Positions 32,745-38,285 of a DNA stretch of 47,983 bases are shown here, one piece after another. A program made the position numbers and the translations under genes. The notes under the pieces are model-generated. The model ran no database searches. It saw only the letters and a program-made list of their open reading frames with translations, and was not told the origin of the DNA. Source of the stretch: Alphaproteobacteria bacterium MarineAlpha3_Bin7 (GTDB lineage: Bacteria > Pseudomonadota > Alphaproteobacteria > Rhodospirillales > UBA2165); assembly GCA_002937995.1 (NCBI GenBank), contig PTLG01000001.1, positions 1-47,983 on the forward strand, read 5' to 3'. Position 1 is the stretch's first letter, and each line of letters opens with the position of its first letter.

Positions 32745-33365
32745 CTAAAAAGGTCCCCAGGCACGCTTAACGGCTGGACGGCCGGAAATAGAATTATACC
32801 AACGTTTAATATTTGGGTAGTCTGACAGGCCTATCCATTTGTCATTACCAAAAATATGTGTATCGGAATACATTGAAATGTCTGCTACTGAAAATTCCCC
32901 AGCTATGTACTCTCTATCACTCAGTGCACCGTCAACAGACCTGTACATATCGCGCATTACTCTATCGTAGTGGTCTTTTGCCTCAGGTATATCCTCTGGA
33001 GAACGTATCATAAAAAATCCATATTGTTGGGAAATAGTTGTGAATTGGGCAGATCCATAAAACAGCCATTTGTCCACCTCGATTTGTTGCATGGGATCAT
33101 CTGGATACAAGCGGTTATCCATTTTGGAACCAATGTATTTTAATATGGCGCCCGATTCAAAAAGTATAGCCTGTTGACCGTTTGGTCCATCGGGATCTAC
33201 GATCACAGGTATTTTGTGATGAGGGTTAATTTTTAGATATTTTGGGTCAAATTGTTCTCTTTCCAATAGGTTAACGGGGATAATTTTATATTCCAGCCCA
33301 CTTTCTTCCATCATGTGCCGGGCTTTATAACCGTTGTCAGTGTCCCAAAAGTAGAGATCAATCAT
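32745..33365 (-). CDS. Glutathione S-transferase family protein
   Basis: 206 aa. The N-terminal thioredoxin-like GST domain (KINPHHKIPVIVDP ... LFESGAILKYI) is followed by a helical C-terminal domain. Confidence 0.8.
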   Translation of the reverse strand: MIDLYFWDTDNGYKARHMMEESGLEYKIIPVNLLEREQFDPKYLKINPHHKIPVIVDPDGPNGQQAILFESGAILKYIGSKMDNRLYPDDPMQQIEVDKWLFYGSAQFTTISQQYGFFMIRSPEDIPEAKDHYDRVMRDMYRSVDGALSDREYIAGEFSVADISMYSDTHIFGNDKWIGLSDYPNIKRWYNSISGRPAVKRAWGPF

Positions 33366-33789: not shown

Positions 33790-34980
33790 CTAGATAGTTG
33801 TGGCGTCATATGAAAAAAGCCAGTCATATCTCTCCTTCACCCGGTCTGGGTGCCACTCTCTGTCAATAAAGGCTGATGCCTCTTCCTTATTTTTTAGAGC
33901 GGAACTATGAAACCGTTTAGCGTTCTCGTTAGACCCATTAACCATTCGCGTGGTTCTTTCTATCCGGGCATTCTCATAGTTGTGAAGAGCTTCTTCAGTA
34001 TCGCTTGTATCTCTAATAAAACGAGCCAGAATGTATCCATCTTCAATAGCCTGAACAGCTCCTTGTGCCAAAGTGGGTAGTGTAGGGTGACACGCATCTC
34101 CGAGTAGGGTTACACGACCCTTCCCCCATTTTTTCAAGGGCTCTCTCATCATTAGGGCCCACTTATAGGGTTTCTCAATATGTTTAATTATACTATGTAT
34201 ATTTTCATTCCAACCCTCGAAATCGTTATGCAATTCATCCCTGTCACCGAGAGTGCTCCAGGACTCTATTTTCCAGTCATCTCGCTCAACAATACCCACG
34301 AAGTTTAAAAGTTCCCCTCTCCTCAAAAAGTAATGAATAACATGTCCACCCGGTCCAACCCAATTGCTTCCCACAGGTCTAACAAGGCCTTTAGGTAAAA
34401 CTTCGGTTCTGATCACACCCCTCCAGGCTAAAATTCCGGTGAATTGGGGATTGTCATCGCCATGTAGTTGCTTTCGGACAATAGAATGAATGCCATCAGC
34501 TCCTATAACCGCAGTACCTGAGATTTTACGGCCATTTTTTAGAGTGATGGAAGCGCCTTTTGTCTGGTCTCCTACGCCAACTATCTGACTATCAAGATGA
34601 ATTGCCCGAGGCTTCAGTTTCCGCACTTCGTCTAATAAAATTTTATGAAGGTCAGCTCTATGGTACATAAAATACGGATAGCCATATCTTTCAGTTGATT
34701 CTGCGCCAAGGTCAAAAAGCTCCCATGTCTCTCCTGTGTTCCATAACCTGATTTCTTTTCCTTCAGGCTCCCACGCTATCTCCCGTAAACTATGTTCCAA
34801 GCCAAGTGCAAACAATACGCGGTTGCCATTTGCACTAATTTGTACACCGGCTCCTACTTCACCTAATTGAGTGGATTGTTCGTAAACATCAACATCTATT
34901 CCATATTTAAGAAGTGCAAGTGCTGCGGTTAGACCCCCAATACCTGCACCAGCAATGATTATATGTGGATCAGTTTCCAA
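33790..34980 (-). CDS. FAD-dependent aromatic monooxygenase (salicylate/3-hydroxybenzoate hydroxylase-like)
   Basis: 396 aa. Motifs: [17 protein letters not shown] (GxGxxG), [34 protein letters not shown]. Confidence 0.8.
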
Positions 34981-35143
34981 GTGTTTTCTCTATGGAAATA
35001 TTGATTATCAGTAAGAAAGGTTAACACCAAAAAGGGAACTGGTCTATATTCGAAAATGATTCAACAATGATTAGAATTATTTTAAATATTCATGTAATAT
35101 GCTAAGCGATAACGATTTAATTAGTAGCCCAGAGGACAAGAAT

Positions 35144-35617
35144 ATGGCAGAAAAACTTGGTATAGGTTCAGCTTTTCCTGATGTGACAATAGATACCGTA
35201 GATGGGGAGTCTTTATCAATACCCGCTAGCCTCGATACAAAATACAAGCTTATTCTCTTTTATAGAGGTCACTGGTGACCCTACTGTCGCCGGCAGTTAG
35301 TCGGCTTTGCTACCGTAAAGGATCAGTTAGACGAAAAGGGTGTCAGTGTGGTTGCAGCTAGCGTAGATCCTCTCGATAAGGCTAAGGAGGTATCTGATGA
35401 GGTTAACTTCCCAATTGGCTTTGGAGTAACTAAGTCTATCGCTGATAGTGTTGGTGCCTGGTGGGAAGAACGAAGGCAAATCATTCAGCCCTCAGAATTT
35501 TTGTTGAATTCCGAGAACAAGGTAATGATATCCAGTTATAGCGACGGGCCTTTAGGCCGTTTTGATGCACAAGATGTAATAAAGCTAATAAATTTTTATG
35601 AGAAGCAAAGTAGTTAG
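35144..35617 (+). CDS. AhpC/TSA-redoxin-like thiol oxidoreductase, predicted selenoprotein (TGA at 35276-35278 read as Sec in H-W-U-P-Y-C)
   Basis: ATG at 35144 with GAGGA 7 nt upstream. The frame is continuous to 35617 except for one TGA, which falls at the first position of the redox C-x-x-C (FYRGHW-TGA-PYCRRQL). The downstream part (VSVVAASVDPLDKAKE...FPIGFG) is typical redoxin sequence. Confidence 0.6.
35289..35305 (+). promoter_or_regulatory. Candidate bacterial SECIS hairpin
   Basis: GCCGGC-AGUUA-GUCGGC: a 6-bp stem (one G-U pair) with a 5-nt loop containing GU. It starts 10 nt after the in-frame UGA. Folded by eye only. Confidence 0.35.
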
Positions 35618-35741
35618 AGTAAAACTAAACTACAAATCATAAAGATTTTAGTTGGTATCTTGAATTGTTTCTCAGCTTAAGTTTTATGCCGTCTGGGTGT
35701 TGAGACCTGTGTAACCAAAAGGTGTGGTTGGGTAAGTTTCT

Positions 35742-36608
35742 CTATCCCTTCACTAACTCATACATATAGGTCCAGTCTAGCTTTCCAAGACCCTTGTCTA
35801 TGCCGGTTTTGTAAACTTTAGAAGCTTCTTTGCCTAATACGGTTGGCGTGCCAATTTGCTCAGCGAGGTCAATGCCAATTTGTAAGTCCTTATAAGCCAG
35901 TTCCAGGGCAAATATAGGATCATAATTATTCTGTAATGCGCGTGCGGGGTATGATTTGTCAATATGGCCATTAGTGGCCGTAGTCTGCCTCATTGTTTTG
36001 AGTGCTAAATCAATATCTAGTCCGGACTTTTTGCACAAATTTAATGTTTCGGCAGTTACTAAATTAGTTACAGTAGTCATATAGTTGTTAACAATTTTCA
36101 TCCTTGAGCCCATACCGGCTCCCCCACAATGAACGATAGTGCTTCCCATTAGATTTAATATAGGCTCAGCTTTTATAAGGGTGGTTTTTGTTCCACCCAC
36201 CATTATTAGAAGTTTTCCGCTTGCAGCCATTGTTGATGTTCGTCCTACGGGGGCATCCAGCATTTCTATATTAATCTTGGATAAGTGTTTATGTAATTTA
36301 TCCGTTGTGTGAGGGTGAGATGTCGTCATATCAATAAAAATGGTTCCAGGAAGAAAAGAGTTAGTCGTAACCTTGTTATTTATCAATATTTCATAGACAT
36401 CTGATGACTGCGGTAGCATCGTTATAATAAATTGAGCGTCTTCAATACATTCCAGGGAACTTTTGGCGACTTCTCCACCAGCTCTCTGAAAAGCAGAGAG
36501 TTTATCCGGGTTTTTGTCAAACCCAGTCACTTTGTGGTCTCCATTAATTAGGTTAATCGACATGGGTAATCCCATGGTGCCAAGTCCGATAAAACCGATT
36601 TTTGCCAT
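35742..36608 (-). CDS. NAD(P)-dependent beta-hydroxyacid dehydrogenase (3-hydroxyisobutyrate dehydrogenase family)
   Basis: 288 aa. KIGFIGLGTMGLPMSINL Rossmann motif, plus family-typical layout. Confidence 0.8.
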   Translation of the reverse strand: MAKIGFIGLGTMGLPMSINLINGDHKVTGFDKNPDKLSAFQRAGGEVAKSSLECIEDAQFIITMLPQSSDVYEILINNKVTTNSFLPGTIFIDMTTSHPHTTDKLHKHLSKINIEMLDAPVGRTSTMAASGKLLIMVGGTKTTLIKAEPILNLMGSTIVHCGGAGMGSRMKIVNNYMTTVTNLVTAETLNLCKKSGLDIDLALKTMRQTTATNGHIDKSYPARALQNNYDPIFALELAYKDLQIGIDLAEQIGTPTVLGKEASKVYKTGIDKGLGKLDWTYMYELVKG

Positions 36609-36716
36609 TATTTAAAACCCCCCTCAAAAGAATAGAGACTTATCTCTTTACTGAATATGGCTCATCAAGATACTGTGTTGTCTAATGGAGAAATAATAAA
36701 ACGGGGAGTGTAAGCA

Positions 36717-38285
36717 ATGCAAACTGCTTTCGATCTCGTATGGATGTCTGCGGAGCGGAATCCTAAACAGGTTGCTCTAGTTGATGACTTATTGGATAGG
36801 AAACTTTCTTATTCGCAGCTTATTTTGGAAGTCGATAGGATTGCCGCTGGGCTTCGAAATAGAGGGATTAAAAGTGGTGACAGGTTTGCTACTGTTTTAC
36901 CTGGTAATTTCGAACATTGCCTATTTCTGCTTGCTCTTCAGCGAATTAACGCAGTTCCAACACTAATAAATTTCCGTTTAGGTGATAAGGATATTCAGAA
37001 GCTAATGGAGTTGGGTAAAGTAAGGGGTGCTATAATTTTATCTAATTCTGATTTGGCCAGGAATGTAAAAAGTGTTTTGCCAGACGGTGGTCCCTTGTTT
37101 GTTGTCGGAGAACCTTGTTCCGAGTGTGAAGATTGGTCAAAGTGTAAAGCAGATCCATCTTCAGAAGTATTTAACACTCCCAAGCCAGAGGATGAGGCTT
37201 TTATATTTTACACCTCAGGAACGACAGGTTTGCCAAAGGGGGTGGTTTTGACACACTCGTGTTCTGAGCCCAGAGTGATTTGGCTTTGTACTCAGGCCGG
37301 CTTGCGGCATGGGGTTCATAATAGAACTCTTGGGTTTATGCCATTAAGTCATGTTATAGGTTTTTTTGGAGTTTTTTTGGCGACCCTAGCGCTTAATGGG
37401 ACCTATTATATTATGACTGCTTTTGATCCTGATGCAGCCGTCGACATGGTTAAAAAACATCAGATAACCTATATGTTTGCGGTTCCACAATTATATTATG
37501 CTATGAGTATATCTCCCAACTATTCTTCAAAAAATATGGAAACCGTTCAGCTTGCTTTATATGGGGGTGGGCAGATTGATAGTAAGCTTCTCGAAAGGAT
37601 AGATAGAGAGTGGTCGGCCACTATTCGACATATTTATGGTACTACTGAGACTATGTGCTCCCTTTATAATCCAGAACCTGTTGGACAACACACCCGTCTT
37701 CGACCTGGGTTTTATTCCAGAGTAAGAGTGATAGATGTTGGCGGAGATGTAACTGGAGAGGTAAGCGTTGGGGAAGAGGGAGAGTTAATCGTAGATGCAC
37801 GGGTAGATACAATATTTAAAGAATATTTAGAAATGCCTTTAGCTACAAAAGAAAAAATTACTGACGGCTGGTATCGTACAGGCGACTTATGTAGATTGCT
37901 TGCGGATGGGGATGTAGACCTTATTGGCAGGACGGATGACATAATTCGGTCTGGTGGTGAAAATATTCATCCGAGTGAGATCGAGCCCATTATTCTTTCG
38001 CATCCAGCTGTTTCAGATGTAAGCGTTTTAGGTATCCCCAGTTCTAGGTGGGGCGAGGCAGTTACTGCCTGTGTAGTAGCAAATAGTATCAGCATAAAAG
38101 AATTACATTCGTTCGTCTCAGACACCGATTTACCGAGCTTTAAGCGGCCCAAGATATATTGTGTCATTGATAAAATTCCAAGAAACGCGGCAAACAAGGT
38201 TTTACGTAAAGACCTTGAAATACAGGTAGATGAAATAATGGCAGAGGGTAATGAAAACTTGTTCTTAAAACTTGATAAAAGTTGA
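36717..38285 (+). CDS. AMP-dependent synthetase/ligase (acyl- or aryl-CoA ligase)
   Basis: 522 aa. Motifs: FYTSGTTGLPKGV (AMP-binding), YGTTE, YRTGD, IRSGGENI. Confidence 0.85.
   Translation: MQTAFDLVWMSAERNPKQVALVDDLLDRKLSYSQLILEVDRIAAGLRNRGIKSGDRFATVLPGNFEHCLFLLALQRINAVPTLINFRLGDKDIQKLMELGKVRGAIILSNSDLARNVKSVLPDGGPLFVVGEPCSECEDWSKCKADPSSEVFNTPKPEDEAFIFYTSGTTGLPKGVVLTHSCSEPRVIWLCTQAGLRHGVHNRTLGFMPLSHVIGFFGVFLATLALNGTYYIMTAFDPDAAVDMVKKHQITYMFAVPQLYYAMSISPNYSSKNMETVQLALYGGGQIDSKLLERIDREWSATIRHIYGTTETMCSLYNPEPVGQHTRLRPGFYSRVRVIDVGGDVTGEVSVGEEGELIVDARVDTIFKEYLEMPLATKEKITDGWYRTGDLCRLLADGDVDLIGRTDDIIRSGGENIHPSEIEPIILSHPAVSDVSVLGIPSSRWGEAVTACVVANSISIKELHSFVSDTDLPSFKRPKIYCVIDKIPRNAANKVLRKDLEIQVDEIMAEGNENLFLKLDKS

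Follow-up and report, generated by a model that had tools for sequence, protein, structure and literature searches.

Selenoproteins of the Prx-like 1 family

Selenoproteins named 'Prx-like 1' or 'Prx-like thiol:disulfide oxidoreductase' have been catalogued since 2005 (Zhang, Fomenko and Gladyshev; PMC1088965). Table 2 of the GOS study describes 'Prx-like 1' as a pfam00578 family with a UxxC motif and 225 selenoprotein sequences (Zhang and Gladyshev, 2008; PMC2398784), and Dataset S1 of the same study places about 30 RGHWUP sequences under '#Prx-like 1', e.g., FYRGHWUPYCRRQL...IIQPSEF (PMC2398784). The consensus of bacterial SECIS elements is a small hairpin whose apical loop has a G (PMC1088965). 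According to a 2026 review, the 'Prx-like thiol:disulfide oxidoreductase' is 'predicted with high confidence' and not experimentally verified (PMC13188914).

The gene described here lies in a 47,983-nt stretch of DNA of Alphaproteobacteria bacterium MarineAlpha3_Bin7 (GCA_002937995.1, contig PTLG01000001.1, positions 1 to 47,983), the whole of which is called the window below. It is a genuine selenoprotein gene with a predicted selenocysteine (Sec) at UGA codon 45, a reading to which we assign a probability of about 0.95, and it is a member of the published, already known Prx-like 1 family; the novelty implied in the preliminary description of the locus thus falls away. The window protein shares 61% identity over 144 aa (E 3e-75) with JCVI_READ_1093012132367, a GOS sequence of Dataset S1, and has in common with Prx-like 1 the PF00578 domain, the UxxC motif, the signature FYRGHWUPYCRRQL...IQPSEF...SYS.GP.GR., the marine origin and a small SECIS hairpin whose apical loop contains a G. 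There is no difference of kind: the gene is a further unannotated member, found in a marine bacterium that has not been cultured and whose genome measures about 2.6 Mb. Prx-like 1 is a broad bin, and the window gene belongs to its cytoplasmic 156-aa subgroup, recognized by the motif GHWUPYCRRQL.

A redoxin frame with one internal UGA

The redoxin frame that opens at 35144 has a single in-frame TGA, at codon 45, within the peptide F-Y-R-G-H-W-U-P-Y-C-R-R-Q-L, and is then open to the TAG at 35615-35617 (Table 1). An ORF finder reports the gene as two ORFs in one frame, the first of 59 aa (35099..35278) and the second of 89 aa with a GTG start (35348..35617). When a Cys is placed at codon 45, the translation matches the Pfam families AhpC-TSA (PF00578; E 2.5e-19) and Redoxin (E 1.5e-13); the AhpC-TSA match covers residues 7-127, and the domain therefore spans the TGA. 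The preliminary description had placed the ATG, the GAGGA motif, the TGA, the stop and the 89-aa ORF correctly, each position being confirmed on the sequence. A Shine-Dalgarno-like motif is found no more than 20 nt upstream of the start in 84 of 99 orthologues. The gene is intact and monocistronic.

Table 1. Coordinates of the UGA-containing redoxin gene, its neighbours and related loci. Plain numbers are window positions; C and L designate other contigs of the host assembly and loci of the comparative set, respectively.
Feature	Position	Strand	Basis or remark
Glutathione S-transferase	32745-33365	-	
FAD-binding monooxygenase-like gene	33790-34980	-	divergent, upstream of the redoxin
In-frame upstream ATG extension, 15 codons	35099..35143	+	ORF list; used by database entry P0001
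Shine-Dalgarno-like GAGGA	35132..35136	+	read directly; 7 nt ahead of the ATG
Complete predicted selenoprotein CDS, 157 codons + TAG	35144..35617	+	translation with TGA = U, PF00578, orthologue alignment, AlphaFold2
UGA codon 45, predicted U45, directly before helix 46-57	35276..35278	+	orthologue column, Cys homologues, metagenomes
TGT codon 48, second (resolving) Cys of U-P-Y-C	35285..35287	+	C48 invariant in the orthologue alignment
Predicted bacterial SECIS hairpin: 6-bp stem 35289-35294/35300-35305, loop AGUUA 35295-35299	35289..35305	+	RNAalifold, covariation
Spurious 89-aa GTG ORF, C-terminal fragment of the real gene	35348..35617	+	ORF list; same frame as 35144
3-hydroxyisobutyrate-dehydrogenase-like NAD-binding protein	35742-36608	-	convergent, downstream of the redoxin
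Prx/Bcp-like candidate selenoprotein, STPGUTKEG (TxxU)	C228:13732-14097	-	
Deiodinase-like candidate selenoprotein, GSYTUPPF	C252:9833-10279	+	
AhpD/CMD-like CxxU candidate selenoprotein, NCNYUGN	C201:17066-17230	+	
AhpD/CMD-like CxxU candidate selenoprotein, QCAYUTSH	C170:1644-1841	+	
AhpD/CMD-like CxxU candidate selenoprotein, ECFYUTSS	C206:32763-32894	-	
Cys form P0004	L117:3001-3477		
Cys form P0008	L118:3001-3480		
Subclade with a U-U mismatch in the hairpin	L040, L046, L053-L056, L065, L070, L083, L085, L087, L088, L090, L098		

The 15-codon extension ahead of 35144 is probably not translated. Among the 99 orthologues, the 30 nt that precede the position equivalent to 35144 have no codon periodicity (entropies 1.77/1.76/1.75 at the three codon positions), and a start equivalent to 35144 is present in every one.

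Conservation of the UGA codon and coding constraint on both sides

Orthologues were gathered in two parts. A six-frame search of 60 related genomes yielded 19, with 48-59% identity, 18 of them from 12 other genera of the window's own family and one from a different family within the order; each has exactly one in-frame TGA. Species-representative genomes contain at least 542 relatives, the best 80 of which were examined and come from Alphaproteobacteria, Burkholderiales and other Betaproteobacteria, and one Gemmatimonadaceae MAG. Together, the 19 and the best 80 make 99 orthologous loci with 48-68% identity, in which the window's own family is represented by about 14 genera, and the U45 column is TGA in 99/99. 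The start codon lies exactly 44 codons 5' of the TGA in all 99 (98 ATG, one GTG), and a further in-frame stop occurs in none.

In these 99 loci, the entropies at the three codon positions are 0.73/0.45/1.46 for codons 2-44 and 0.73/0.51/1.55 from codon 65 onward. The values are alike on both sides of the UGA and the periodicity is absent from the leader; therefore, purifying selection acts on both halves, which form a single translated frame. The N-terminal 44 residues, which the preliminary description had counted as part of the protein, are kept in 99/99 homologues with the same periodicity as the downstream part. Invariant residues are found on both sides of the UGA in the orthologue alignment, the upstream ones being G8, F11, P12, P27 and Y40-W44; R41 and U45 do not vary within the family. 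Neither the orthologues nor the metagenome populations carry additional frame disruptions.

This pattern bears on the reading of the locus as a pseudogene, in which a nonsense mutation has turned the TGY (Cys) codon of a CxxC redoxin into TGA and the frame is still undegraded. The splitting of the gene by standard ORF calling is what a pseudogene would be expected to give, but a TGA held in 99/99 orthologues, with intact starts, no other stops and the periodicity of purifying selection on both sides, is not. The reading is effectively refuted by the TGA conservation.

A second alternative takes the functional product to be the downstream fragment alone, initiated at TTG 35297 or GTG 35348, with the upstream 44 codons serving as a leader or remaining untranslated. 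This is how gene callers treat the family. The best 120 database relatives comprise 78 truncated entries, 35 with Trp at the UGA position, six with a real Cys and one with Arg (P0011, 226 aa); none has U. The 78 truncated entries span 89-108 aa, and most of them take codon 52 (TTG or ATG) as the start, giving products of 105-108 aa from L52/M52. Such a product would, however, be missing the entire UxxC centre along with beta-strands 1-3, the 44 codons upstream are as constrained as the rest and contain the invariant residues named above, and the supposed start at codon 52 falls in the SECIS loop. It is highly improbable that the fragment is the functional form.

A covarying hairpin 3' of the UGA

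In the SECIS elements of the E. coli fdhF type, a hairpin with a G-U in its small apical loop is located directly 3' of the UGA, within the coding region. The window hairpin, GCCGGC-AGUUA-GUCGGC, starts 10 nt 3' of the TGA, and its loop G at 35296 is 18 nt from the A of the UGA; the position and the GU loop are those given in the preliminary description, which had proposed a SECIS element here, and the comparative data back that proposal. The predicted element resembles the fdhF type in its location in the coding region, in the spacing of about 10-11 nt between UGA and stem and in the G-U of the small loop, but has a shorter stem (6 bp) without a bulged U and a loop of the form AGUUR.

As a single sequence, 35270-35335 folds no better than its dinucleotide shuffles (z = -0.55). 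The hairpin alone is thus unremarkable; it is the comparison of orthologous sequences that puts it far beyond chance. In the ungapped alignment of the 19 orthologues, the RNAalifold consensus is exactly the 35289-35305 helix and nothing else. All 108 of 108 stem cells (100%) are paired in this set, against at most 60% with slid partners; compensatory double changes are present at four of the six stem pairs; and the covariation score is reached by none of 500 shuffles. The pair 27-41 occurs as C-G, U-A, G-C and U-G and links the synonymous wobble base of Arg49 with the non-synonymous second base of codon 54, a coupling for which no protein-level constraint accounts. In one orthologue (L031), RR has become QQ, and the 3' arm has changed to match.

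The pattern extends to 94 distinct sequences, in which 97.3% of stem cells pair, slid partners reaching no more than 54%; 92 of these sequences have AGUUG or AGUUA as the loop. In one Rhodospirillaceae-like subclade, columns 30/38, which form the pair adjacent to the loop-closing one, are a U-U mismatch (CGU ... GUC); the predicted SECIS evidently tolerates a non-canonical pair at this place. The conservation of the hairpin sequence is owed in part to the conserved peptide RRQL. An Rfam scan of 34000-37000 with E values up to 10 returned no SECIS family and only chance snoRNA-like matches.

Decoding capacity of the genome

The host assembly (2.58 Mb in 271 contigs, 92% complete, 39.5% GC) contains the complete machinery for Sec insertion, a point on which the preliminary description had made its proposal depend. 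The genes for selA (TIGR00474, 571 bits) and selB (TIGR00475, 444 bits) adjoin each other, selD is present as well (TIGR00476, 400 bits), and all three are above the model cut-offs. ARAGORN identifies a tRNA-Sec with the anticodon UCA, and Rfam RF01852 confirms it with 70.7 bits, the gathering score being 47.

The genome encodes at least five further candidate selenoprotein genes of redox type, each with an in-frame TGA inside a Pfam match (Table 1). Each of the five is followed by a hairpin that has a G in its loop and lies 11-18 nt after the UGA.

The UGA could in principle be read as another amino acid, through a reassigned code or near-cognate read-through, and Trp would be the candidate. 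The 35 Trp entries among the best 120 database relatives (HWWPYC) agree with such decoding, but presumably stem from short contigs called automatically with table 4. In this genome, TGA terminates 188 of the 1021 ORFs of at least 300 codons, with the next stop a median of seven codons further on, and RF2 is present (503 bits); an ordinary TGA stop together with RF2 rules out the table-4 reading. The column is Cys in true homologues, and TGG occurs in none of the 99 loci and four Cys-form loci examined. Codon 45 is also the first position of the CxxC redox motif, where Trp would be inactive, and the genome has a dedicated tRNA-Sec with the anticodon UCA, along with SelB, for this codon. Decoding as Trp, or as any other amino acid by these routes, is therefore exceedingly improbable.

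Cys homologues and the direction of change

Alignment to Cys homologues places the TGA column at the Cys/Sec position, as the preliminary description had supposed: under an exact table 11 translation, the U45 column is Cys in P0004 (TGT), P0008 (TGC) and the distant P0118 (TGC). In a quick ML tree, P0004 and P0008 nest within Sec clades, and in both the SECIS hairpin is still present; the hairpin is absent from P0118. The close Cys forms are therefore recent Sec-to-Cys conversions. Their hairpins look like fossil SECIS elements, and in P0008 the GU of the loop has become GC.

The existence of Cys forms is the other point that a pseudogene would share, a change from TGY to TGA requiring a single base. 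The nesting of these forms in Sec clades with a retained hairpin speaks against it, in that the direction is from Sec to Cys, as do the covariation of the downstream hairpin and the completeness of the Sec machinery. With the UGA conservation already considered, a pseudogene is very improbable. The 157-aa Sec-containing redoxin that the preliminary description had preferred to a pseudogene is supported by the conserved TGA, the covarying hairpin and the Sec machinery alike.

Fold, active site and proposed mechanism

The AlphaFold2 model built from the orthologue alignment has a pLDDT of 91.8 and a pTM of 0.88, with U45 immediately before helix 46-57. In a Foldseek search against the PDB, the top 50 matches are all peroxiredoxins (TM 0.79-0.86, probability 1.00), the best, at TM 0.80-0.86, being Bcp4 (3hjp, TM 0.84), the Aeropyrum pernix Prx and Prx6-type enzymes. 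The best PDB match by sequence is StoA (3erw, E 3.4e-7), whose W-C-P-P-C is aligned with W-U-P-Y-C. In the HMMER alignment to the 1-Cys Prx LsfA (7kuu), which has PADFTPVC, the Pro is aligned with R41, the Thr with U45 and the peroxidatic Cys with C48. The assignment of codon 45 to the catalytic Cys of a redoxin, made in the preliminary description, thus holds in the thioredoxin-like CxxC sense, where U45 corresponds to the first Cys of StoA WCPPC, and fails in the peroxiredoxin fold, where it occupies the Thr position.

The window protein is best described, on the strength of the model, as a predicted cytoplasmic peroxiredoxin-fold scaffold with a thioredoxin-like U45-P-Y-C48 selenol/thiol pair. 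It shares with the canonical peroxiredoxins (Bcp/PrxQ, Prx6, AhpC) the overall fold and a Cys at the peroxidatic position, C48. It does not count as a canonical Prx, since two residues of PxxxTxxC are missing, with R41 in place of the Pro and Sec in place of the catalytic Thr. It also differs from Sec-Prx, in which Sec replaces the peroxidatic Cys (TxxU; the candidate on contig C228 is an example from the same genome), whereas the Sec of the window protein is three residues upstream. The NCBIfam peroxiredoxin models score far below their cut-offs, Bcp being the best at 34 bits against 140.

The extracytoplasmic oxidoreductases TlpA, ResA, StoA and CcmG have a W-C-P-x-C that aligns residue for residue with W-U-P-Y-C. 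Unlike them, the window protein has no export signal or anchor, and the fold search favours peroxiredoxins. Neither a signal peptide nor a membrane anchor was found, the N-terminus, MAEKLGIGSAFPD, being hydrophilic and free of hydrophobic segments. Membership in the TlpA/ResA/StoA group was rejected, the NCBIfam models for StoA, ResA and TlpA giving 20-34 bits against cut-offs of 170-230. The SelL-related and WAxxUGC selenoprotein families were likewise set aside, since their NCBIfam models score far below cut-off.

The machinery and the conserved RNA element suggest how recoding may proceed. The hairpin at 35289-35305 would bind SelB carrying GTP and Sec-tRNA(Sec), and SelB would bring selenocysteine to UGA-45 in competition with RF2; the Sec-tRNA(Sec) would be made by SelA with selenophosphate from SelD. 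In the folded protein, to judge from fold and motif, the U45 selenolate at the N-terminus of helix 46-57 may attack a disulfide, a sulfenic acid or a peroxide as its oxidised substrate. C48 would then resolve the intermediate to give an intramolecular selenenylsulfide, to be re-reduced by a cellular thiol system, thioredoxin or glutathione. We infer the actual incorporation of selenium, and likewise the substrate and the reductant.

Members of the GHWUPYCRRQL subgroup are nearly all Sec forms (99/99 genome loci examined), the few Cys forms being recent derivatives that have the hairpin. It is possible, if doubtful, that the subgroup represents a mechanistically distinct peroxiredoxin-fold enzyme and not a generic thiol:disulfide oxidoreductase. 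Were this so, Sec at the catalytic Thr position beside a Cys at the peroxidatic position would form an obligate Se-S centre with a substrate of its own.

Neighbourhood and possible horizontal transfer

All-against-all clustering of the flank ORFs of the 99 loci revealed no conserved neighbour common to more than 17 loci; a cluster of 37 loci consists of an antisense ORF within the redoxin gene itself. The genomic context therefore gives no substrate. The glutathione S-transferase, monooxygenase-like and dehydrogenase-like genes of the window (Table 1) are not conserved partners of the redoxin in other genomes.

In a comparison with loci L015-L032 and L037-L116, the window protein is 61-68% identical to copies from unrelated Alphaproteobacteria and Burkholderiales MAGs, against 48-59% within its own family. 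In the quick ML tree, the window copy lies inside an Alpha-/Betaproteobacteria clade apart from its own family, with 98% support and a long branch of 0.46. The GC content of the redoxin gene, 42.8%, matches that of the flanks. Judged from these sequence comparisons, and with a long-branch placement in a quick tree, the pattern suggests either an old horizontal transfer or the retention of a different paralogue.

Consequences for annotation

The locus should be recorded as one CDS of 157 codons with a translation exception for Sec at 35276-35278, and not as an 89- or 106-aa 'redoxin domain-containing protein'. The misannotation is systematic across databases, as gene callers routinely cut genes of this family in two. 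No NCBIfam model is above cut-off for the GHWUPYCRRQL subgroup; with at least 542 loci in species-representative genomes, hundreds of records stand to be corrected by a curated selenoprotein model. The main value of the present case is this correction of annotation: the gene is genuine but ordinary and raises no new question. It adds one more data point to the observation that free-living marine proteobacteria with small genomes keep a multi-member selenoproteome.

Metagenome and transcript data

Two metatranscriptome runs contained none of the stretch. Contigs of four marine metagenomes from different studies have no variant at the TGA (35276-35278), which is therefore not an assembly error. 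Polymorphisms of the hairpin in metagenome contigs keep its structure, 35299 A>G being in the loop and 35305 C>T turning a G-C pair into G-U. Over 35271-35308, which comprises HW-UGA-PYCRRQL and the hairpin, contig depth rises 3- to 10-fold in runs X7 and X13 as other species align; this segment is thus the family's most conserved nucleotide stretch, as expected where protein and RNA constraints overlap.
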